DNA from: Escherichia coli
Lineage (GTDB): Bacteria > Pseudomonadota > Gammaproteobacteria > Enterobacterales > Enterobacteriaceae
DNA: 64,000 bases
NCBI RefSeq assembly: GCF_001677475.2
Contig: NZ_CP015229.1
Direction: 5' to 3' (one strand)
The notes below the pieces were generated by a model that was given only the letters and a program-made list of their open reading frames with translations, did no database searches and was not told the origin of the DNA. Position 1 is the stretch's first letter. Each line of letters begins with the position of its first letter. The position numbers were made by a program, and so were the translations under genes. Below, in pieces: positions 36,319 to 62,066 of this stretch.

Positions 36319-37342
36319 AACCCAGTACCTCTACTTTTACATGGTGTTCCTGCAGCCAGGCAATGGCGGCTTGCGTATCTTGTTGGGTGCCGTGCATTTC
36401 AGTCAGCATGATGCCGAACTTAACGCCACCGGCGTAATCCATCTGCGCGCTAATAATGTTGTTGTTGACGTTGAAACGACGCGCGGTTTCAGAAAGCAGC
36501 GGGGCATCGACCGATTGACCGGTAAACTCCAGACGCAGCATCGGCACGCAGTCAGTAAATGGCTCCGCTTGCAGACGTTCCTGGTAATCTTCCGGGATAT
36601 CCAGATGCAGGGTCGACTGAATAAACTTCTGCGCCAGCGGCGTTTTCGGATGCGAGAACACTTCACTTACCGTGTCCTGCTCGATCAGTTCGCCATTGCT
36701 GATGACCGCCACGCAATCACAAATGCGCTTCACAACGTCCATTTCGTGAGTGATCAACAGAATCGTCAAACCCAGACGGCGGTTGATGTCTTTCAGCAGT
36801 TCGAGAATAGAACGTGTCGTTGCCGGGTCCAGCGCGCTGGTGGCTTCATCACACAGCAATACTTTGGGATTGCTGGCTAACGCACGGGCAATTGCCACAC
36901 GTTGTTTCTGCCCACCGGAAAGATTCGACGGGTAGCTATCATGCTTATCGCCAAGACCAACCAATGACAGCAATTCCGTCACGCGACGTTTGATCTCGTC
37001 TTTCGGTGTGTTGTCCAGCTCCAGCGGCAGAGCCACGTTGCCAAAAACAGTACGCGAAGAGAGCAGGTTAAAATGCTGGAAAATCATACCAATCTGGCGG
37101 CGAGCTTTGGTCAACTCGGATTCTGACAGCGTGGTCAGTTCCTGGCCATCGACCAGCACGCTACCCTCGGTTGGGCGCTCCAGCAGGTTTACACAACGTA
37201 TAAGCGTACTCTTACCCGCGCCTGAGGCACCGATAACGCCATAAATTTGTCCAGCTGGCACATGCAGGCTGACGTTGTTCAACGCCTGGATGGTGCGGGT
37301 GCCCTGGTGGAACACTTTGGTGATATTCGAAAGTTTTATCAT
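36311..37342 (-). CDS. metN: D-methionine ABC transporter ATP-binding protein
   Basis: 343-aa [49 protein letters not shown] (Walker A), [15 protein letters not shown] signature. Confidence 0.95.
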
Positions 37343-51841: not shown

Positions 51842-51918
51842 AACACAACGCGGAGCGGTAGTTCAGTCGGTTAGAATACCTGCCTGTCACGCAGGGGGTC
51901 GCGGGTTCGAGTCCCGTC
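51842..51918 (+). tRNA. aspV: tRNA-Asp (anticodon GTC)
   Basis: Identical 77-nt sequence to aspU; located after dnaQ as in K-12. Confidence 0.95.
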
Positions 51919-51925
51919 CGTTCCG

Positions 51926-51966
51926 CCAATATTCAGAAAGCCCGAATCAGTAATGATTCGGGCTTT
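51926..51966 (+). terminator. aspV terminator
   Basis: gaaagcccgaatc-agtaat-gattcgggctttc followed by gtcgtttt. Confidence 0.65.
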
Positions 51967-52059: not shown

Positions 52060-53106
52060 TTACTCCAGCGCATCCCATTTTTCCAGCAGTTCTACTGGAA
52101 TTTCATTTATTACCTCCGAGAAGCGTTTTCCGACCAGGCGTTCTGCCTGGCGCAGCAAAGGAATGGTCGGGCTGCTCGGTTCGCTGTGCTCAAACCAGCG
52201 ACGGATGACACGCAGGCGTTCCAGCGCGTCGTTCCGGTCGCGGATCTGCCGGGGTTCTGCGCCGGACATCGGTGATATTTCCTCCGCGATATGCACCGGT
52301 AGCGCAATCTGCTCTGATGATATCTCTTCAGTATGAACGATGGTGGTGCTCTCCGGCTGTTCAGCCACTGGTTGTGGCAGGATCTCCGGCGTGGTGGTCC
52401 GTATCGCTCCCGGCAACAGGGCCAGCAATTGTGTCAGACGGGATAGGTTCGGTGCCTGGTCATTCAGCGTTTCACGCGCATGGCGTTGCAGCCGCTCAGT
52501 GGTCTCTGCGGCCTGGCGAAAGGCATCCAGCGGCAGTGTGCCGCGCGCCTCCAGGTCGGCCAGTTGCTGGCGTACCGATTCTGGTGCCAGCGCATCCGCC
52601 GGGCGTGATGCAGACAGCGAACGCTCCACATCCCGTACCTGAAGGCGTATGGCAGCATTGTTTGACAGTGTAATGCCACGAATATCCGCTATTACGCCTT
52701 CATGGTCCAGCAACGCCGCCAGGGCGTTACTACGTGCCACTGCCGCCTCTTCGGCGGTGATATCTTCAGTCGCGAGCAGTTGAGGATGGATGGCGTTCGG
52801 GTACGTGGCGCACAACGTTTCCAGCAGCGCGAGCGCCTCCGCCAGTCCCCTGGCACCGGCCTGCTGGATACGGCAGCGCAGCAGGACAACCAGAATGCGG
52901 ATATCTTTGCTGCGCGTCAGCAGGCGGCAGGCATCCCGCTCAAGCTCCGCCCAGTTAATGGTTTCCGGCGTACTGACAAAATCGCCGTATTGCGCTTCTT
53001 CACGCGGTGCGGCGCGCGTGAACAGTAGCAGGTATTCCGGATCGTACTCCAGATCCGGGCCGCAGGGGCATTCTGCCGAAATTGGGTCAGACAGGGATGT
53101 ATCCAT
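52060..53106 (-). CDS. tssA: T6SS protein TssA (ImpA N-terminal domain family)
   Basis: 348-aa ORF MDTSLSDPISAECPCGPDLEYDPEYLLLFTRAAPREEAQYGDFVSTPETINWAELERDACRLLTRSKDIRILVVLL, the ImpA_N signature pattern. Confidence 0.8.
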   Translation of the reverse strand: MDTSLSDPISAECPCGPDLEYDPEYLLLFTRAAPREEAQYGDFVSTPETINWAELERDACRLLTRSKDIRILVVLLRCRIQQAGARGLAEALALLETLCATYPNAIHPQLLATEDITAEEAAVARSNALAALLDHEGVIADIRGITLSNNAAIRLQVRDVERSLSASRPADALAPESVRQQLADLEARGTLPLDAFRQAAETTERLQRHARETLNDQAPNLSRLTQLLALLPGAIRTTTPEILPQPVAEQPESTTIVHTEEISSEQIALPVHIAEEISPMSGAEPRQIRDRNDALERLRVIRRWFEHSEPSSPTIPLLRQAERLVGKRFSEVINEIPVELLEKWDALE

Positions 53107-53116
53107 TAAATTATCC

Positions 53117-54112
53117 TCAGTGCGCCAGGTAGTGTTCTGGTTCGAAAATCATGCCCGTCACCGGGTTTTCGTGCATGGCTTTACCCGCCCATGCGGTCCA
53201 GCCCAGTTGGTACGAACCACCGGTAACAGCCGGAGGGGCGGCGTGGGGCTTTAGCTGTAGCTCAATTTCCCAGCAGTATTCAAAACCGCTAAAGGAGCGG
53301 ACCAGTTCTGTCAGGACTGGCAGGTTATTGCCGCCAGGCAGAAAACGTCGGTAATCCTCCAGCGTCAGCGGGCCGATAACCAGCCGGAACTTATACTGCA
53401 TGTCCGGCACGGCCTGGCCGATGAGTGCACCGTTGCCAATAACGGAAGAGGGGGCTGGCATCCCCAGCCGGGTGATCTCATCGTCCGCCACGGCTATCCA
53501 GTGCAGGACATACTCCTGTATCCGGAAAGGTACACCGAAATAGTGCGCCAGCGTGGTGGCCAGACCGTCCGGATTGCGGGACTCACGCACCAGATGGGCC
53601 GATGCCGCCAGGCGAGCGTGATCCTGCAACGGGCTGTCGGCGCTCTCCCGCAAATCCTGCCCGCTGAGGCTGGCGATATAAAAGGCAAAACGGTCATGTT
53701 GCGGTTTATCCAGACCGCCCCCAGCGGACTGGGCGCTGCGCCATGCCTGGTAAAACTGCGTCAGCCAGCGGTGATGAAAAAGATCAGAAAAACGGGTTAG
53801 CGTCGGGTCTCTTCGGCTTTCAGTCCGGTTGTGCGCCAGTTCGGTGTAGTGCAGCGGCAGTGGACCGTTCGGCCCCCACAGCCCGAGACTGTACAAACTG
53901 ATATGCAGCCGCTCTTCCTGCCAGCTCACACTGGCGATTTCCCGTGGCGCAAAGGTCAGCGCGGGAGTTTGTCCGAGGCGAAATTTTTCCATCCGTGGTT
54001 GCCAGGTGTTGCCTGCCGGAACAGTACACAACTGCACATCCACGCGGCGCATCAGGTTCAGAAAACCGTAACGCCAGGGGGTTTCCTGCGCCTGAGTGAA
54101 ATCGTCGCTCAT
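53117..54112 (-). CDS. tssG: T6SS baseplate subunit TssG
   Basis: 331-aa ORF MSDDFTQAQETPWRYGFLNLMRRVDVQL..., immediately downstream of and 4-nt overlapping tssF. Confidence 0.8.
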   Translation of the reverse strand: MSDDFTQAQETPWRYGFLNLMRRVDVQLCTVPAGNTWQPRMEKFRLGQTPALTFAPREIASVSWQEERLHISLYSLGLWGPNGPLPLHYTELAHNRTESRRDPTLTRFSDLFHHRWLTQFYQAWRSAQSAGGGLDKPQHDRFAFYIASLSGQDLRESADSPLQDHARLAASAHLVRESRNPDGLATTLAHYFGVPFRIQEYVLHWIAVADDEITRLGMPAPSSVIGNGALIGQAVPDMQYKFRLVIGPLTLEDYRRFLPGGNNLPVLTELVRSFSGFEYCWEIELQLKPHAAPPAVTGGSYQLGWTAWAGKAMHENPVTGMIFEPEHYLAH

Positions 54113-55992
54113 ACGCTTCCCCGCTGTCCCGCCCTGGCAGGCCAGGTCATAATTTTGCCGCGCTGCATGCTGTGCAGCGTCATCTGCGAGAAGGTATTAA
54201 TGGAAACATGACGGGCGATATAGTGCTCCAACACCAGACCGAACAGATACGGACTGATACCGGAGAACCCCTCCTCATCCACGGTCAGTTCACAACTGAC
54301 GCCGCGCCCATAGACCAGCAGCCCGGAACCGGGCAGACGGCGGGTGACCGGGGTGGTGTTGCAGCCAATCAGGCTGCGCACCTGGCGCGACTGCGGACTG
54401 TCATGCGCCGGAATAAACAGGTTAAGCAGATCGCGCAGCGCCTGACCACCGGTACGGTGATCCAGATCGGCCAGCGGCAGATAGTTAAAGGATAACTGGC
54501 GGATCAACCGCCAGGCCATTTCACGTTCAGCCAGCGGAGGCTGCGGCGGACGCGGCGGACGGATAAGCCCCACGCCCGCCACCGGGATGGCCGCATCCAC
54601 GGTCAGATCGTCCCGTCCATTGCGGGCAATAAGACAGGGCAGATCGCGGTTGGTGACCATAGCCGTGATGGTGATATGGCGCAGATTTTCCGGGTATGGC
54701 GCTTCATACTGGTCAACCAGCGACAGGAACACTTCTGATCCTGTATAGGAGGTGCGGGTGCCATAGCGGCGGGCATTTTCCGACAACCGGCGCGGCTCCC
54801 GGCGCAGGGAAAAATAACGTCCGTGATTGCCTTCATCATTATTGCGGGTGTGGTAGAGCGGGCGAAAGGCCATCTTCCGTGTGGTGTCAGTTTCCAGCCC
54901 TTCCACTTCCTGGACCGAGAACACCTCATAATCCAGCGGATGGGTTCTGTCCACCACCAGATGCTGTTCCGTCGTGCTGTGCGTGACATCGATCCGGGCG
55001 GCGACTCGGGGAAACAGGTTGATAACCGGGGTACAGAACAGACTGAACTGTGCCGCGTTTGTCTGGTGGATCAGCCAGTCCGGCGGCAGGCGGTTCAGCA
55101 GGATAACAATCTCCGCCACTCCGCCTTCAATTTTCTGTAACCCGGCAGACAGGCCTGTCGGGGTGAAAAAAAAGAAGCGTTCCGGACAGGTAAAATATTC
55201 ATGTAGCAGGTTATGGCCGTGAAACACATTCCACGCCAGCGGCAACAGTCCCTGATCCGGATCCAGGCCTTCGTACATAACGGGCTGTTTCAGATTCACA
55301 TCCAGTGCGCCGTCAAAATGCCCCGGAATGCCAGCCAGGCTCGCGATGGCGCTGGTATGCAGTAGTTCGAACAGGTGTGAGGCCGTGCGCTCCTCGCCGC
55401 AGAGATAAAATGGTAGCTTGTTCAGCCCTGCAAGCTGACTGAACGTCAGTTCACCAAAGGTGCGCAGGGTAATACGCAGCGCACCAGCGACGTGAATGTT
55501 GGCTGGCAGGTAGCGGTGCAGGGCAGGCATATCCGGCGGCGCGGCGGTCAGGCGCACCTCTTCGATGGCAAGCGGCCACAGCGTCACATTCTGGCTGCTA
55601 CGAAACTGGCAGGCAGTACTTTCGCCTTCCGGAATGGCGGAAAAAAAGGCCGTGTTGCGCGGGACGGTGAATCCCTTCGCCAGATCGCCTTCTTCCGGAT
55701 CGGGATGAAGCTGCGCCACGCTCATTGAGGGCGTGGGTGTGACGTAATTGGGGCTGACCACTTCCAGCAGGCGCTGGGTGAAACGGGGGAATTCAGCGTC
55801 AATTTTTAGCTGCGTGCGGGCGGTCAGGAAGCTGAAGGCCTCGACCATTCGCTCCACATACGGATCGGCAATATCCGTTCCCTGCATACCCAGTCGGGCG
55901 GCGACTTTAGGATGACGGGCGGCAAATTCGGCTCCCGTTTCCCGCAGATAGCTCAGTTCGCGGTTGTAGTATTCCAGTAGCCGTGGATCCAT
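54109..55992 (-). CDS. tssF: T6SS baseplate subunit TssF
   Basis: 627-aa ORF with the characteristic TssF N-terminus MDPRLLEYYNRELSYLRETGAEFAARHPKVAARLGM. Confidence 0.88.
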   Translation of the reverse strand: MDPRLLEYYNRELSYLRETGAEFAARHPKVAARLGMQGTDIADPYVERMVEAFSFLTARTQLKIDAEFPRFTQRLLEVVSPNYVTPTPSMSVAQLHPDPEEGDLAKGFTVPRNTAFFSAIPEGESTACQFRSSQNVTLWPLAIEEVRLTAAPPDMPALHRYLPANIHVAGALRITLRTFGELTFSQLAGLNKLPFYLCGEERTASHLFELLHTSAIASLAGIPGHFDGALDVNLKQPVMYEGLDPDQGLLPLAWNVFHGHNLLHEYFTCPERFFFFTPTGLSAGLQKIEGGVAEIVILLNRLPPDWLIHQTNAAQFSLFCTPVINLFPRVAARIDVTHSTTEQHLVVDRTHPLDYEVFSVQEVEGLETDTTRKMAFRPLYHTRNNDEGNHGRYFSLRREPRRLSENARRYGTRTSYTGSEVFLSLVDQYEAPYPENLRHITITAMVTNRDLPCLIARNGRDDLTVDAAIPVAGVGLIRPPRPPQPPLAEREMAWRLIRQLSFNYLPLADLDHRTGGQALRDLLNLFIPAHDSPQSRQVRSLIGCNTTPVTRRLPGSGLLVYGRGVSCELTVDEEGFSGISPYLFGLVLEHYIARHVSINTFSQMTLHSMQRGKIMTWPARAGQRGSV

Positions 55993-56007: not shown

Positions 56008-56502
56008 TTAAAAAAACGTAATGCGGCTCTGTTCCATATCCAGCGCGCTGCGTACCCGGAATGCCATCGGGTAGGGCTGCGTGAGGATCTCGCCGCGAAT
56101 TTCAAACTGTAATGTGTTATGGCCGCTCTGGTGGCGCTCATCCTGAAGTGGGATGATTTGCAGGGGGGACGCTTTCAGCCGGGGTTCAAACCGGATGATG
56201 GTACGCAAAATGGCCCTGTGAATATCGTCCCACTTGTGTTCATACAGAAAGCTGCCCGCCAGTGGCGGCAGGCCGTAGTTCAGTACGGACGCTGCCGCGT
56301 GCGGATAACGTGCAGCATCAATATCATCTTCATGGCTGACGGTGTTGAGCAGAAATGACAAATCCCGGCGAATGATCTCCTTAAGCTGAACCGGGCTGAC
56401 GCTGATATCGTGGTCGCGTTTCTGGTTTGGGGCATCATCACACAGGCGGTCAAACAGCGTGGGCAGCAGGTGATTGCCCGGACGCTGGCGGGAAGCGCTC
56501 AC
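56008..56502 (-). CDS. tssE: T6SS baseplate protein TssE (gp25-like)
   Basis: 164-aa ORF LLPTLFDRLCDDAP...VQLKEIIRRDLSFLLNT...YGLPPLAG, typical TssE pattern. Confidence 0.8.
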   Translation of the reverse strand: MSASRQRPGNHLLPTLFDRLCDDAPNQKRDHDISVSPVQLKEIIRRDLSFLLNTVSHEDDIDAARYPHAAASVLNYGLPPLAGSFLYEHKWDDIHRAILRTIIRFEPRLKASPLQIIPLQDERHQSGHNTLQFEIRGEILTQPYPMAFRVRSALDMEQSRITFF

Positions 56503-57329
56503 GCGTCGCTTCCTTCAGCGGTGTTAAAGGTACAGGTGGACAAATCCAGCAGGCTGATATCGCCGTGACCGGTGAGCCACACCCTCTGACCCAGCGCCTG
56601 TACCAGAGTCTCTCCCGGCCCGTCCTGCCAGACCGTTTTCCGGCACAGACGCAGGGAGTCGGCAGCCTTTTCAGAGCCGCTGTAGCGGGAAAACAGCCAG
56701 GCACTGTGTGTGTCGCCATTATTCAGTGTGACGTTGACGGGTTTCCAGATCAAATCGGTCAGATGCGCAGGCCGCGGCGATTTTAGCGAACAGATTTGTG
56801 AAAACGGCAACCAGATATATACTCCGCCCGCGATGAGTTCGAGTACCGGACCGGTACGGGAGTCGCTGTCGCTAATCCAGTCAAATGCGCCGCCATTCCA
56901 CTGTCCTGCAGTATCTGTTATGGCCTCAAGTGCGCGGCTGCGGTGGGCGTCAGCTTCCTGCGCTTCACCACGGGCGTTACAGGCGAGGGCGGTCAGCAGA
57001 TCCTCCATCCAGGCGGGCGGCGGGAGAATAAAATCGGGCCGCTGTTCTCCCTGAAAGCAGGCGTGGCGGTATATCTCACAGCGGATCAGCTCGCCAAATA
57101 CCTGCGCTTCGCGGGTATAATTTGCGTCCATCCGGGCGCATAGCTGGATCTGTTGCAGTGCCCGCGACCAGTCGCCTGCCACGCACAATAACTGAAACAG
57201 GCTGTGGCGGCGGGAGGCCTGCGCCGGGGGCATCCTGACCTGCTGCTCTGCCATCTGAATGCCCTCCGCCACGGAATAATCCCGCAGCAGCGCCGACAGG
57301 GTAGCCGGTAGCTCGTTATTGTTTGTCAT
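56499..57329 (-). CDS. tagJ: T6SS accessory protein, TagJ/ImpE-like (tentative)
   Basis: 276-aa ORF in operon between fha-like gene and tssE; size and overall pattern resemble ImpE-family proteins; assignment by recollection, not alignment. Confidence 0.5.
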   Translation of the reverse strand: MTNNNELPATLSALLRDYSVAEGIQMAEQQVRMPPAQASRRHSLFQLLCVAGDWSRALQQIQLCARMDANYTREAQVFGELIRCEIYRHACFQGEQRPDFILPPPAWMEDLLTALACNARGEAQEADAHRSRALEAITDTAGQWNGGAFDWISDSDSRTGPVLELIAGGVYIWLPFSQICSLKSPRPAHLTDLIWKPVNVTLNNGDTHSAWLFSRYSGSEKAADSLRLCRKTVWQDGPGETLVQALGQRVWLTGHGDISLLDLSTCTFNTAEGSDA

Positions 57330-58230
57330 GAGATATCTCTCCGTGTTGTGCCGGGTTTATCCGATAATGGCTGTCAATGCCAATGATGCGATGCTCTTTG
57401 CGTGTCAGGTCGGGTAGAACGGTGTTATGCGCTGTTTCCGGTGCGCATTCCGGGGATAGCAGGTGCAGGATATCTGGGGGCGTCTTTTCGGCAGGCCAGG
57501 CGGTTTCCCCTTCGCCGGTGGCGTCCAGGACATCGAGAATAGCGTCAATGCTTAACCCGCCAGTGACCATATCCTGCAATGTCTCGGCTTCAGTGACCAG
57601 ATCACGCAATGAATCCAGATCCTGTGAGGAGGGCTCTTCGTTAAAGGGAAAAGGATCAGCATGGCGATGAAGATCTTGTTCAGGAGATAACAACGCCTCG
57701 CGGTATTCCTGATAAAGTCGAGTCAGGGCATTTTCTTTTTTAGCATCTTCTCCAGTGGAGGAGGCTCCATGAACAGGAATGATATCGAATGGATTTTGTG
57801 ATGTCAGATGCTGCTGCCTGAACCAATCCAGATCCAGATATTCGGTTATTGTTTCCGACATGGTGGCAGTCTGCGATGTCGTTTTTACTGCGCTCAGGTC
57901 CGGAGATGATGGATTGCCGTGCACAAGGCACCATGAAGATAACCCCCATTCTATCAGGTCGCCTTCATTCAGACGCATACGGTGATGAGGTTCCACAATC
58001 TGGTCGTTTACCGTACAGCAATATTCGGTAGACTGATTGATAATCCACCATGCTTCTTCGTGGCGGGTCAGACTGAGGGCAATCTTTACATCATCATTCA
58101 CCTCAAAAACAGGAATCCAGGGTGAGGTAACGGTGAAGATAATTTGGGTTCCTTCAGTCGCGTAAATTGTGTTATCGGCGATCCCGTGCGCCTGTATTTT
58201 TTGGAGTCCCCACGTAATATTTGGTTTCAT
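57316..58230 (-). CDS. T6SS-associated protein with N-terminal FHA-like domain (TagH/Fha-like, tentative)
   Basis: 304-aa ORF; first gene of the minus-strand operon; N-terminal roughly 100 aa end in ...TVNDQIVEPHHRMRLNEGDLIEWG, resembling the C-terminal strand pattern of FHA domains; acidic Ser/Thr-rich C-terminal half. Confidence 0.45.
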   Translation of the reverse strand: MKPNITWGLQKIQAHGIADNTIYATEGTQIIFTVTSPWIPVFEVNDDVKIALSLTRHEEAWWIINQSTEYCCTVNDQIVEPHHRMRLNEGDLIEWGLSSWCLVHGNPSSPDLSAVKTTSQTATMSETITEYLDLDWFRQQHLTSQNPFDIIPVHGASSTGEDAKKENALTRLYQEYREALLSPEQDLHRHADPFPFNEEPSSQDLDSLRDLVTEAETLQDMVTGGLSIDAILDVLDATGEGETAWPAEKTPPDILHLLSPECAPETAHNTVLPDLTRKEHRIIGIDSHYRINPAQHGEISHDKQ

Positions 58231-58562
58231 TGTGTATCACTGTGTAGAATGTTTCTTTCAAAAGAATAAGTTTTCTAAATTTTTAGATAAGCAATGCTGA
58301 TTAATTTACTTTATCAATATAAGTTTTCGCGGAAATATATAGTGGCGATTTTCAATTTAATATATTCATGGTATGTATGAAATTGGCTTGCTCTATTGAA
58401 TATCACCATGAAAAAGATACTACCTGCTATATTACATTGTGTTCTGTGATATGCATCATTGTTTCATTCGGCCTTTTTGATAATTCTATTAATTAGAAGT
58501 TTTAATCGATACAGTTATGTTTATGTATCATTTATATGTTCTTACATCATTAGGTGTAACAG
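58231..58562. promoter_or_regulatory. AT-rich divergent promoter/control region between the two T6SS operons
   Basis: 332-nt non-coding region, visibly AT-rich with multiple A/T tracts, between divergently transcribed fha-like gene and clpV. Confidence 0.5.
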
Positions 58563-61196
58563 ATGGACACTCCTGTTTCGCGCAGTGCACTGTATGGAAA
58601 GCTAACCAAATCTTTGTTTAGATCTTTGGAATCTGCGACGACGTTCTGTAAATTACGCGCTAATCCTTATGTCGAACTGACGCATTGGTTGCATCAGTTA
58701 ATACAACAACCAGAGAATGACATTCACAATGTGCTTCGACATTATCAAATAACATCTGCTGATGTTGAGAAGGCGTTAATTCAGCAATTGAATATATTGC
58801 CTGCCGGAGCGAGTGTAATTAACGATTTTTCCCATCATATCGATCTTTCTGTTGAAAAAGCCTGGATGTTGGCAAGTATCCGCTTTGGCGATCAAAAAAT
58901 TCGTAGTGGATGGTTATTACTTGCCTGGTTAACCACGCCAGAATTGTGTCGGGTGTTAAAAAATATTTGTGCGCCATTGGCAGAGCTGCCGGTAGATGAA
59001 CTATTAGATATTCTTCCGTCTTTAATCACTTCATCTCCTGAATTAACAGAAATGCCTTATGACTGCTCGGATTTAAATTCTGCAGTACCGGGGGAAGCTA
59101 GCCAGGTCTTTGCCGGCGAATCAACCGGAAGCAAATCCGCGCTGGCGAAATACTGCCAGGACATGACTGCGCTGGCCCGTGAAGGCAATATCGATCCGGT
59201 CACCGGTCGCGAACACGAGATCCGTACTATGACGGATATTCTGCTGCGCCGTCGCCAGAACAACCCGCTACTGACCGGCGAAGCGGGAGTCGGGAAAACG
59301 GCAGTGGTGGAAGGATTCGCGCTGGCGATTGCCGGGGGGGAAGTACCGCCTTCACTGCGTAACGTGCGGTTGCTGTCACTGGATGTTGGAGCGCTGCTGG
59401 CTGGGGCGTCCATGAAGGGTGAATTTGAATCCCGCCTGAAAGCGTTGCTAGAAGAGGCCGCGCGCTCGCCGCAGCCGGTAATCCTTTTTGTTGATGAAGT
59501 TCACACGCTGGTGGGCGCTGGTGGTACATCCGGTACGGGGGATGCTGCCAACCTGCTGAAACCGGCGCTGGCGCGTGGCACCCTGCGCACCATCGGCGCA
59601 ACCACCTGGAGCGAGTACAAACGCCATATCGAAAAGGATCCGGCGCTGACTCGGCGTTTTCAGGTATTGCAGGTTGCTGAGCCGGAAGAGGTTGCGGCTG
59701 TTGAGATGGTACGCGGGTTAGTCACCACGCTTGAAAAACACCATGACGTGCTGATCCTTGATGAGGCCGTGCGCGCCGCCGTACAGCTTTCTCACCGTTA
59801 CATTCCGGCCCGGCAACTACCGGATAAGGCCATCAGCCTGCTGGATACGGCGGCGGCCCGTGTAGCGCTGTCGCTGCATACCCCGCCTGCGAGAGTCCAG
59901 TATCTGCGCCAGCAGCTCAACGCTGCCGAACTGGAGCAGGTGTTGTTATTAAAGCAGGAAAAAATGGGTATCCGCTCGGAGCGGGGCGATGTACTGACGG
60001 CGCGGATTATATCGCTTAATGCCGATCTTTCTGACACCGAAGCGCGGTGGCAGCAGGAACTGGAGTTGGTTCGCAGTTTACAGGAGCAACGCGGCGCAGC
60101 GCCTGGCGAGCGCGACGAAATCACTCTACAACAGGCAGAAACGGCATTAAGAGGCTGGCAGGGTGAAAACCCCGTCGTGTACCCGGAAGTCAGTGCAACC
60201 GTGGTGGCAGAGATTGTCTCCGACTGGACCGGTATTCCCGCCGGACGGATGGTGAAAGATGAAGCCAGTCAGATACTGGAATTGCCCACCCGTTTGGCGC
60301 AGCGTGTTACCGGGCAGATGGATGCGTTGGCGCAGATTGGCGAGCGTATCCAGACCGCGCGGGCGGGTTTAGGTGACCCGCGTAAGCCTGTGGGTGTCTT
60401 TTTGCTGGCCGGGCCGTCCGGAGTAGGCAAGACTGAGACCGCGCTGGCACTGGTAGAAGCAATCTATGGCGGTGAACAGAATCTGATCACCATCAACATG
60501 AGCGAGTATCAGGAGTCTCACACAGTCTCCACTCTGAAAGGCGCGCCGCCCGGCTACGTCGGTTATGGCGAAGGCGGCGTGTTGACGGAAGCGGTACGCC
60601 GCCATCCCTGGAGCGTGGTATTGCTGGATGAAATTGAAAAAGCCCATCACGACGTCCACGAGCTGTTCTTCCAGGTGTTTGATAAGGGGGCGATGGAAGA
60701 TGGCGAAGGTGTCCACATCGATTTCAAAAATACCACGCTGTTGTTGACGACTAACGCGGGGGCGGAACTTATCAGCCAGCTCTGTGAGGATCCGGCGCTG
60801 ATGCCCGATTCGGCAGGGTTAAAAGAGGCGTTAATGCCGGAGTTACGTAAACACTTCCCGGCGGCTTTCCTGGGGCGTGTGACGGTTATTCCTTATTTAC
60901 CGCTGGATGAGACCGCGCGTGGTGTTATTGCCCGCCTGCATCTTGGCAGATTGATGGCTCGGATGGCGGAGCAGCATGGCGTTTCACTGGTGTATGGCGA
61001 TGAACTGATTACGCATATTGTGTCGCGCTGCCCGATGCACGAGACCGGCGCTCGTTTGCTCATCGGCTATATCGAACAACATATCCTCCCACAACTGTCC
61101 CGTTATTGGTTGCAGGCGATGACAGAGAAAACGGCCATCACGCAAATCCGCATTCGTGTTGATGAGGATGAACAGATTATTTTTGAAACGGATTAA
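58563..61196 (+). CDS. clpV: T6SS AAA+ ATPase ClpV (TssH)
   Basis: 877-aa ORF with two AAA+ modules: Walker A GEAGVGKTAV and GPSGVGKTETA, Clp N-domain-like N-terminus. Confidence 0.92.
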   Translation: MDTPVSRSALYGKLTKSLFRSLESATTFCKLRANPYVELTHWLHQLIQQPENDIHNVLRHYQITSADVEKALIQQLNILPAGASVINDFSHHIDLSVEKAWMLASIRFGDQKIRSGWLLLAWLTTPELCRVLKNICAPLAELPVDELLDILPSLITSSPELTEMPYDCSDLNSAVPGEASQVFAGESTGSKSALAKYCQDMTALAREGNIDPVTGREHEIRTMTDILLRRRQNNPLLTGEAGVGKTAVVEGFALAIAGGEVPPSLRNVRLLSLDVGALLAGASMKGEFESRLKALLEEAARSPQPVILFVDEVHTLVGAGGTSGTGDAANLLKPALARGTLRTIGATTWSEYKRHIEKDPALTRRFQVLQVAEPEEVAAVEMVRGLVTTLEKHHDVLILDEAVRAAVQLSHRYIPARQLPDKAISLLDTAAARVALSLHTPPARVQYLRQQLNAAELEQVLLLKQEKMGIRSERGDVLTARIISLNADLSDTEARWQQELELVRSLQEQRGAAPGERDEITLQQAETALRGWQGENPVVYPEVSATVVAEIVSDWTGIPAGRMVKDEASQILELPTRLAQRVTGQMDALAQIGERIQTARAGLGDPRKPVGVFLLAGPSGVGKTETALALVEAIYGGEQNLITINMSEYQESHTVSTLKGAPPGYVGYGEGGVLTEAVRRHPWSVVLLDEIEKAHHDVHELFFQVFDKGAMEDGEGVHIDFKNTTLLLTTNAGAELISQLCEDPALMPDSAGLKEALMPELRKHFPAAFLGRVTVIPYLPLDETARGVIARLHLGRLMARMAEQHGVSLVYGDELITHIVSRCPMHETGARLLIGYIEQHILPQLSRYWLQAMTEKTAITQIRIRVDEDEQIIFETD

Positions 61197-61386
61197 TGGA
61201 GCATCCTTATGGCAAAAGAATTAAGTGGCGCACTGTGGTTCAGTCGCTTTCCTGGAAGTTCTTCCACTAATGATTTGCAGGGGACTTTTCGTGCATCGGT
61301 AGATAATTTTTTGCGCGCGCATTGGTAATGCGCGTGCAAGGGTCAGTATCTCTGCAACATATCGCCCTCCCGCCAGAGCATATCTC

Positions 61387-61773
61387 ATGCACTGGTCATG
61401 GTTGATTGCTCATGAAATCGTTCAGGCAAAAAACGTCCCGGCGATGGAGGGGGTGGATATTGAGTGGGTTCACCCGACTGAGCAAGCCTCGCTTGAAGCG
61501 GCGCAGGCTATGGTTACGGCCTATGGTATTAATAATCTGAATGTCGCGCCTGCACTGAGCTCCAACCATACACGCGGTACTGCGATAGATATGAATATCA
61601 GTTGGAGCGGAACATTAACAATTGCGGGGAGCAATGGTCAGAATGTTGCAATTAATACACTACCTCGAACCGGAATGAATGCCCAGCTTCAGGCGGTAGG
61701 TCTGGGTTACGGCGTCAGAAAATTTGTTGGCGGCAATACAGATATACCTCACTGGTCAATTGATGGACATTAA
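61387..61773 (+). CDS. Candidate T6SS effector: small zinc metallopeptidase of the VanY/peptidase M15 (LAS) type, predicted peptidoglycan peptidase
   Basis: 128-aa ORF, no signal peptide, no Cys; exact VanY-type motif S59-N-H61-T-R-G64-T-A66-I-D68 (SxHxxGxAxD) at nt 61561-61590 and C-terminal His in IPHWSIDGH; located between clpV and tssB. Confidence 0.5.
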   Translation: MHWSWLIAHEIVQAKNVPAMEGVDIEWVHPTEQASLEAAQAMVTAYGINNLNVAPALSSNHTRGTAIDMNISWSGTLTIAGSNGQNVAINTLPRTGMNAQLQAVGLGYGVRKFVGGNTDIPHWSIDGH

Positions 61774-61775
61774 GT

Positions 61776-62066
61776 ATGACATTTCGTTATCCGATGTTGT
61801 TGACATTCCTGTTAATGATGTTCGCTTTCTGTGTTCAGGGGGAACCGCCTTTACCACAGGATGTGCAGCATTTTCTGAGTAATGCGGAAATGTGCCAGCA
61901 TCTTGCTGGTGAATGGGACAGTTCTTTACCAAAGAAGGATAAAAGAGACATCGAAAAGGGGGTTGATACCTGGTGTCCTCCGGCGAAGAAATCACTCCCT
62001 GTGCTGCGGGAAAAGTACAAAGAAAACAAAGAGATTATAAAAATACTCTCTGCGTATGATTTTTAA
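61776..62066 (+). CDS. Candidate periplasmic immunity protein for the upstream peptidase
   Basis: 96-aa ORF starting 2 nt after the peptidase stop; N-terminal Sec-type signal peptide MTFRYPMLLTFLLMMFAFCVQG; two Cys in mature part; Lys/Glu-rich C-terminus. Confidence 0.45.
   Translation: MTFRYPMLLTFLLMMFAFCVQGEPPLPQDVQHFLSNAEMCQHLAGEWDSSLPKKDKRDIEKGVDTWCPPAKKSLPVLREKYKENKEIIKILSAYDF

Follow-up and report, generated by a model that had tools for sequence, protein, structure and literature searches.

What does a forkhead-associated (FHA)-like protein do in a type VI secretion system (T6SS) that comes with no evident kinase or phosphatase? The question is raised by a 64,000-nucleotide stretch of Escherichia coli DNA (assembly GCF_001677475.2, contig NZ_CP015229.1), referred to here as the window, in which a minus-strand operon of T6SS genes begins with a gene for a 304-amino acid protein. 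A first-pass annotation had described this protein as an N-terminal FHA-like region followed by an acidic Ser/Thr-rich tail. In threonine phosphorylation-regulated T6SSs the Fha protein works with PpkA and PppA, and the annotation left two explanations for their absence: either the regulators are encoded elsewhere in the island, or this protein acts in a different way. We find that the protein belongs, by profile homology, to the named TagK family, whose predicted FHA fold has lost the canonical phosphopeptide-binding site and whose gene clusters carry the repressor TagF without a kinase or phosphatase. On balance, we favor a role for TagK in T6SS assembly that is independent of phosphorylation.

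Identification of TagK

The protein matches the NCBIfam profile NF033418, "type VI secretion system-associated protein TagK", over its full length (residues 1–304 on profile positions 1–305; 553.5 bits against a cutoff of 200; E 1e-166), and amino acids 166–289 match the domain model NF033419 (104.6 bits, cutoff 40). The gene lies inside a T6SS cluster, 5' of tagJ and tssE, and the same slot is occupied in 46 related loci. Judged by this homology, tagK is a real gene rather than a chance open reading frame (ORF), and its product is a member of the TagK family. As the first-pass annotation had it, tagK is the first gene of the operon; the ORF, its coordinates, and the sequence confirm this, along with the length of 304 amino acids and a 14-nt overlap with tagJ.

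The window TagK is 51–60% identical to its family homologues in Salmonella, Citrobacter, and Enterobacter, and across Escherichia and these genera full-length TagK is conserved at 51–86% identity with 55 invariant positions. Searched exhaustively with the profile, 1.84 billion cluster representatives yielded 291 relatives. Column counts given below refer to 69 diverse relatives that are 17–31% identical to the window protein. By these homologies, the family spans Enterobacteriaceae to Burkholderiales. The TagK of pathogenicity island 6 of Salmonella (SPI-6), at the SciF position, occupies the same operon slot (tagKJ-tssEFGA) in the same type of tRNA-Asp island, and no material difference from it was found; SPI-6-type T6SSs are of subtype i3 (PMC12288458). 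A sequence search of the PDB returned no solved TagK structure and only marginal FHA matches.

In Xanthomonas citri, the name TagK is given to a T6SS transcription factor of the AraC type that is unrelated (Lima et al. 2022, as described in PMC11385963), and the authors of a Kosakonia study called a further, different accessory gene "tagK1" (PMC6125372). TagY of Burkholderia, for which post-translational regulation of T6SS-1 has been proposed, was considered as a synonym of TagK and rejected, as TagY is a transmembrane protein and unrelated.

An FHA fold without the canonical phosphothreonine-binding site

AlphaFold2, run on a 16-sequence alignment, predicts a confident β-sandwich of 10 β-strands for amino acids 1–106, with predicted local distance difference test (pLDDT) values of 83–91. 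A Foldseek search of the PDB gave 46 matches at E ≤ 1e-3, every one of which is FHA or FHA-like, with TM-scores of up to 0.75 on the target. The best match is the FHA domain of Ki67 (E 9e-6, TM 0.72), and others include DgcB, GarA/OdhI, Rv0020c, YscD of type III secretion systems (T3SSs; 4a0e), and 4d9v. By model and fold search alike, the domain is predicted to have the FHA fold, which is an eleven-stranded β-sandwich. The Pfam FHA profile (PF00498) falls just short, scoring 19.6 bits against a gathering threshold of 20.7 and aligning at profile positions 25–67 of 67 only; among the relatives it reaches E ≤ 0.01 in only 12 of the 69 (best 3e-4). The window protein also has a weak match to Pfam Yop-YscD_cpl. 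The FHA-like region proposed earlier therefore stands unambiguously at the level of fold, whereas the FHA profile search that had been named as a check remains borderline.

Phosphothreonine contacts were mapped by aligning the family profile to canonical FHA domains, namely that of Arabidopsis 1uht (E 0.0096) and that of Ki67. The Gly-Arg pair between β3 and β4 maps to variable, non-basic TagK columns. The Ser and His of the SxxH motif (β4–β5) map to positions 48 (A/Q/E/D) and 51 (Q/A/L/R), and the Asn of the (S/T)xNG motif (β6–β7) maps to position 70 (L/W/V/Y). Column counts agree with the profile alignment, as the complete GR...SxxH...(S/T)xNG signature occurs in none of the 69 relatives. 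The columns that are conserved (G16, W61, N65, C72, N75, G90-D91, E94, and G96) belong to the structural core. As judged from alignment and predicted structure, the family has retained the FHA fold and lost the canonical phosphopeptide-binding site throughout. This loss is consistent with the absence of a partner kinase or phosphatase described below.

The window protein has no match at E ≤ 1 to the TagH model TIGR03354 (cutoff 120 bits). Weak similarity to this model appears in 19 of the 69 relatives (best E 3e-7, at most 30.7 bits) and is limited to the FHA and linker part, at profile positions ~46–240 of 420. TagK thus appears to be distantly related to TagH, in degenerate form, and to differ in its C-terminal domain. 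It shares with TagH/Fha1 of the Pseudomonas aeruginosa H1-T6SS, Serratia marcescens, and Agrobacterium a cytoplasmic location and an N-terminal FHA fold, and its i3-type cluster likewise contains TagF and TagJ. It differs from these proteins in lacking the phosphothreonine-binding residues, in its C-terminal domain, and in having a cluster without PpkA and PppA.

A second likeness, seen in the Foldseek and weak Yop-YscD_cpl matches, is to the FHA-like cytoplasmic domains of T3SS inner-ring proteins (YscD, EscD, and PrgH). In these the domain is anchored to a transmembrane ring protein, whereas TagK is soluble and carries the TagK domain. The YscD-type FHA fold is a phosphorylation-independent protein-binding module in a secretion system.

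The C-terminal TagK domain

The C-terminal 198 residues of TagK are 18% Asp/Glu with a net charge of −22, and beyond amino acid 106 AlphaFold2 confidence is low (mostly pLDDT <50) with few helices predicted. This part begins with a linker that is 27% Ser/Thr and poorly conserved except for the motifs LDLDWF and NPFDII, and continues into the TagK domain, which is present in all 69 diverse relatives. In composition, the acidic Ser/Thr-rich tail of the first-pass annotation is real, but it holds a conserved domain and is not a mere tail. Near its end is a hallmark motif with the consensus LTR(R/K)EH(H/R)xxSxDS, which in the window reads LTRKEHRIIGIDS. H280 and S287 are invariant, D286 is conserved in at least 90%, and position 276 is Thr or Ser in 62 of the 69 relatives. 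On these counts the part that stays constant across the family is the TagK domain at the C-terminus rather than the FHA fold. Amino acid 281 (57388–57390) is Arg in enterobacterial TagK (EHR), where ~90% of the wider family have His once more (EHH).

TagK-domain proteins of 204–223 amino acids that have no FHA-like domain occur in the usual tagK slot of some core T6SS clusters, after tagF or opposite tssH and 5' of tagJ or tssE (loci L068, 6001–6672; L069, 6001–6615; L070, 1505–2143). At L068 there is no space for a 5' extension encoding an FHA domain, and at L069 there is a gap of 520 nt and the start may be mis-called. In Burkholderia, proteins of 181–227 amino acids that consist of the TagK domain only are encoded directly 5' of orphan vgrG genes (loci L014, 3134–7938; L059, 5084–11605; L027, 3747–6716), which are followed by a gene for an N-acetylmuramidase or for an 851-amino acid protein of unknown type. 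The TagK domain may be connected with the VgrG spike or with effector loading.

Absence of a kinase and phosphatase

No Ser/Thr kinase or PP2C phosphatase is annotated in the window or anywhere in the island, as judged by the PGAP annotation of the near-identical strain VCSW7, and a Hanks-kinase motif screen of the window gave no match. The same holds for ~65 related loci, in which no kinase or phosphatase was found within flanks of ≤10 kb. In seven distant TagK loci with Pfam-labeled neighborhoods, no Pkinase, PP2C, or second FHA protein is among the neighbors, and no annotated TagK cluster has a second FHA protein. Among 3,754 ORFs spanning 694 kb, none contains the catalytic-loop motif HRDxKxxN. 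For PP2C a permissive motif, DGxGG, matched 23 times, in BamA, TssM, or alternative frames of GC-rich DNA, and Pfam recognized none of the nine matches whose length was plausible. These kinase and PP2C regular expressions were run without a positive control, and more weight is therefore due to the Pfam and PGAP annotations.

PpkA and PppA, whose presence in the cluster marks the TagH/Fha pathway, were thus found in neither the window, the island, nor the related loci. The earlier statement that the window has no kinase or phosphatase gene is borne out by the annotation of the collinear genome and by the motif screen. Its first explanation, that the regulators lie elsewhere in the island, is excluded, as the complete VCSW7 island from tRNA-Asp to yafV contains no kinase or PP2C gene; nor does that annotation place a ppkA/pppA pair just beyond the window, which would have made the arrangement canonical. 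Its second explanation, that the FHA-like protein acts differently, gains support from the family-wide loss of phosphothreonine-binding residues and from the lack of a kinase or phosphatase in the ~65 loci.

T6SSs with an orphan FHA protein are already known. Vibrio cholerae TagH (VCA0112) is needed despite the absence of an encoded kinase or phosphatase (PMC10482370), and an FHA protein without a kinase was remarked on for SPI-19 in 2009 (PMC2907695). The V. cholerae case resembles TagK in being an FHA-type T6SS protein in a system without PpkA and PppA (PMC10482370, PMC6082577), and it is assigned to the TagH family by literature naming. It differs in that its system lacks TagF (PMC6082577), whereas TagK clusters have it.

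Gene neighborhood and TagF

Scanning one genome per species at the DNA level for the back-translated hallmark motif gave 57 loci, every one from Burkholderiales; the pattern fixes Arg codons to CGN and favors high-GC genomes, so this taxonomic spread is a lower bound. Nearly all 57 are in TagK genes inside T6SS clusters, which have one of two layouts. The co-directional one is tssL-tssM-tagF-tagK-(tagJ)-tssE-tssF-tssG-tssA, and in the divergent one, which the window shares, tagK comes first and lies opposite tssH. Upstream of TagK is TagF on the same strand (21 loci), divergent TssH (17 loci), or a contig edge (16 loci), such that TagF is directly 5' of TagK in 21 of the 39 loci with a visible upstream side. 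Downstream is TagJ (23 loci), TssE (13 loci), or TssG (10 loci), mostly with 4-nt overlaps at the junction. Distant members with Pfam-labeled neighborhoods have the same layout.

TagF follows tssM wherever the 3' end of tssM is visible, and the tight linkage of tagF to tssM has been described previously (PMC6082577). The island represented in the window has its TagF after tssM too (Pfam TagF_N, 51.3 bits), and SciT of SPI-6 is TagF in standard nomenclature (PMC3942780). By synteny, TagF is a consistent companion of TagK.

Role of TagK

In Serratia, Fha phosphorylated by PpkA overcomes TagF (PMC6082577). Fha also has an essential role that is independent of phosphorylation, and TagF acts through or with Fha (PMC6082577, PMC5995506), the two proteins binding directly in Agrobacterium and P. 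aeruginosa (PMC5995506). With this as background, our favored reading, which we hold with modest confidence, makes TagK, a cytoplasmic accessory protein of i3 T6SSs, an equivalent of TagH/Fha that does not depend on phosphorylation and acts in assembly alongside TagF. Its FHA-fold N-terminus, lacking canonical phosphothreonine binding, would be a simple protein-binding module like that of T3SS YscD, and its acidic TagK domain would fold on a partner. TagK would take the part, without phosphorylation, that TagH/Fha plays in related systems under kinase control, such as those of P. aeruginosa H1 and Serratia. The step would be an early one in assembly, joining the TssJLM membrane complex and the baseplate, at which TagK would work together with the island-encoded repressor TagF and would probably be gated by it. 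Family identity, fold, loss of binding residues, the lack of a kinase or phosphatase, and conserved gene order with TagF, TagJ, and baseplate genes were computed here; what we infer is that TagK acts in assembly, that it is linked to TagF, and that its C-terminal domain binds a partner.

Several points weigh against this reading. An AlphaFold co-fold of TagF-(GGGGS)6-TagK, with an input of 14 paired and 17 TagK-only rows, left the TagK C-terminus disordered (pLDDT <50; predicted TM-score 0.42), and a direct contact between TagF and TagK is unsupported by this model. The FHA-like domain is dispensable for the core function of the family, because TagK-domain proteins without it exist in some lineages. 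The stand-alone TagK domains beside orphan vgrG genes suggest a connection with the spike or baseplate and not with TagF. As the flanks of the related loci extend over ≤10 kb, a distant kinase in those genomes is possible. Lastly, the literature that could be searched, including under the names sciF and STM0271, yielded no functional work on TagK itself.

A bolder version, possible but doubtful in our estimate, is that these systems have a third mode of post-translational control of T6SS assembly, in which TagF is present without a kinase and phosphatase and TagK, an adaptor derived from TagH but deprived of phosphothreonine binding, is obligatory for TagF gating. In that case the invariant C-terminal hallmark LTRREHHxxSxDS would serve as a docking peptide, with the membrane complex, the baseplate, or the VgrG spike as its target. 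If this is true, docking to the VgrG spike would explain the stand-alone TagK domains beside orphan vgrG-effector modules, and a signal other than phosphorylation must relieve TagF in the systems of Salmonella SPI-6, E. coli, and Burkholderiales.

The vgrG-linked proteins and the negative co-fold also favor an alternative that we consider unlikely, in which TagK is a constitutive adaptor of the spike or baseplate with no regulatory link to TagF, its TagK domain binding VgrG or TssEFGK and its FHA-like domain being an optional docking module. Co-transcription of tagK with tssE, tssF, tssG, and tssA suits such an adaptor, as do the FHA-less TagK-domain proteins in the same core slot. Linkage to vgrG is, however, seen in only ~4 of the 57 loci, and adjacency of TagF and TagK with overlapping reading frames is the commonest upstream arrangement.

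The downstream neighbor suggests another role, in which TagK and TagJ would be a translationally coupled pair made in matched amounts that modulates the dynamics of the sheath (TssB) or of ClpV rather than the assembly of membrane complex and baseplate. The 14-nt overlap in the window and the immediately 3' position of TagJ in 23 related loci, nearly always with a 4-nt overlap, would agree with this, and TagJ binds TssB in P. aeruginosa (Lossi 2012). Against it, TagK is found without TagJ in 23 loci, TssE or TssG being directly downstream of it. TagJ, in turn, is found without TagK in the H1-T6SS cluster. As each occurs without the other, TagK and TagJ appear independent, and we judge the pairing improbable.

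Less probable again is a threonine-phosphorylation circuit in which an unlinked kinase phosphorylates a partner bound through a non-canonical FHA pocket, or in which TagK itself is the substrate, at Thr276 or in the linker. The prevalence of Thr/Ser at position 276 and the Ser/Thr content of the linker are what such a circuit would have, Fha1 itself is phosphorylated on a C-terminal Thr (PMC5995506), and kinases of V. cholerae TagH yet to be identified have been a matter of speculation (PMC10482370). The linker sequence is not conserved, however, and the canonical phosphothreonine contacts are lost and kinase and PP2C genes are missing on the scale described above. That TagK is a decaying, functionless remnant of TagH, as its degenerate FHA motifs, sub-threshold Pfam score, and loss of the FHA part in some lineages might suggest, is very hard to reconcile with full-length conservation from Escherichia to Salmonella, Citrobacter, and Enterobacter, a C-terminal domain conserved as far as Burkholderiales, and a fixed operon position with translational coupling.

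The tagK operon and the T6SS island

The operon has the order tagK-tagJ-tssE-tssF-tssG-tssA (Table 1). The final 14 nt of tagK (ATGACAAACAATAA) are the initial 14 nt of the tagJ ORF, and a GGAG element lies ~9 nt 5' of the tagJ ATG. From tagJ to tssA, the junctions are 4-nt overlaps or gaps of 10 and 15 nt. Translational coupling of tagK and tagJ, suggested in the first-pass annotation, is plausible and agrees with the 4-nt overlaps seen across the family. The intergenic region between tagK and tssH is 332 bp long and 72.6% A+T, and a simple scan of it for σ70 promoters and terminators gave no match. Work on Salmonella takes tagKJ-tssEFGA to be a transcription unit and places bound H-NS at the divergent promoter region (PMC11770342); the A+T content and lack of a σ70 consensus match here fit H-NS silencing as for this homologous region.

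Table 1. Features of tagK and its surroundings in the window.
Feature	Position	Strand	Basis
tagK coding sequence, 304 amino acids, ATG start	57316..58230	minus	ORF; NCBIfam NF033418; RefSeq tagK in 99.5%-identical genomes
Degenerate FHA-fold domain (predicted), amino acids 1–106	57913..58230	minus	AlphaFold, Foldseek, Pfam sub-threshold
Ser/Thr-rich variable linker, amino acids 107–165	57736..57912	minus	27% Ser/Thr, low pLDDT
TagK domain, amino acids 166–289, acidic, predicted helical segments	57364..57735	minus	NF033419, 104.6 bits
Hallmark motif LPDLTRKEHRIIGIDSHYR, amino acids 272–290	57361..57417	minus	Conservation in family
tagK/tagJ overlap, 14 nt, ATGACAAACAATAA	57316..57329	minus	Sequence read
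tagJ, ImpE family	56499..57329	minus	Pfam ImpE, 139.6 bits
tssE	56008..56502	minus	Pfam GPW_gp25; TIGR03357
tssF	54109..55992	minus	Pfam T6SS_TssF, 735 bits
tssG	53117..54112	minus	Pfam T6SS_TssG, 313 bits
tssA, final operon gene	52060..53106	minus	ORF; TssA annotation in collinear genome
tRNA-Asp (aspV), island boundary	51852..51928	plus	ARAGORN; annotation
AT-rich divergent promoter region, tagK/tssH	58231..58562	none	
tssH (clpV), divergent from tagK	58563..61196	plus	TIGR03345, 1215 bits

The tagK region is 99.5% identical to E. coli chromosomes and is carried by only 125 of 5,426 complete genomes of the species. Window positions 36402–64000 are collinear with metN to tssC of strain VCSW7 (98.8% identity), and positions 4–37277 with the adjoining VCSW7 stretch (98.3% identity), the leftmost 36 kb of the window being housekeeping genes from dapD to metN. 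The T6SS island begins at tRNA-Asp, as does Salmonella SPI-6, and is an SPI-6-like, tRNA-Asp-linked T6SS of subtype i3. According to the PGAP annotation of VCSW7, the first block after tRNA-Asp is tssA-tssG-tssF-tssE-tagJ-tagK on the minus strand. It is followed by tssH, two hypothetical genes, tssB, tssC, Tae4/Tai4, hcp, tssJ, tssK, and tssL, and then by Tlde1 with its immunity gene, tssM, the TagF-domain protein, glucosaminidase/Tgi2PP, vgrG, Rhs, and ISAs1, after which comes the core gene yafV. In the reference strain, vgrG carries the annotation of a truncated pseudogene, and the Rhs module is flanked by a pseudogene of ISAs1. The T6SS may not be fully functional in every carrier of the island.

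One of the two hypothetical genes between tssH and tssB (61210–61773) encodes in VCSW7 an intact 182-amino acid protein with a weak Peptidase_M15-like match (E 0.04). The window copy has a 1-nt insertion near 61321 and a 15-nt insertion, which result in a frameshift and leave an ORF of 128 amino acids (61387–61773). The next ORF (61776–62066) encodes 96 amino acids with a signal peptide-like N-terminus. The two look like an uncharacterized effector/immunity pair, of which the effector may be a pseudogene in the window strain.

Implications

As a feature of a T6SS cluster, tagK is ordinary for the field, in that the family is named and kinase-less T6SS FHA proteins are well documented. What is added here is that the FHA domain is degenerate family-wide, that the C-terminal domain is the constant part, that the family ranges from Enterobacteriaceae to Burkholderiales, and that TagF accompanies it. 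The first-pass annotation had noted neither the family name, nor the conserved domain within the "tail", nor TagF as the probable partner in the island. For annotation, the consequence is that an FHA-like T6SS gene without ppkA and pppA is a regular, named arrangement, to be read neither as an anomaly nor as a sign that the island is incomplete.

Conservation of TagK extends over the SPI-6-type T6SSs found in Salmonella, E. coli, Citrobacter, and Enterobacter, and also over many Burkholderiales. These systems have the repressor TagF without the kinase pathway that overcomes it in Pseudomonas and Serratia. What licenses firing in such TagF-containing, kinase-less systems is a question of modest size, for which TagK is the obvious candidate.

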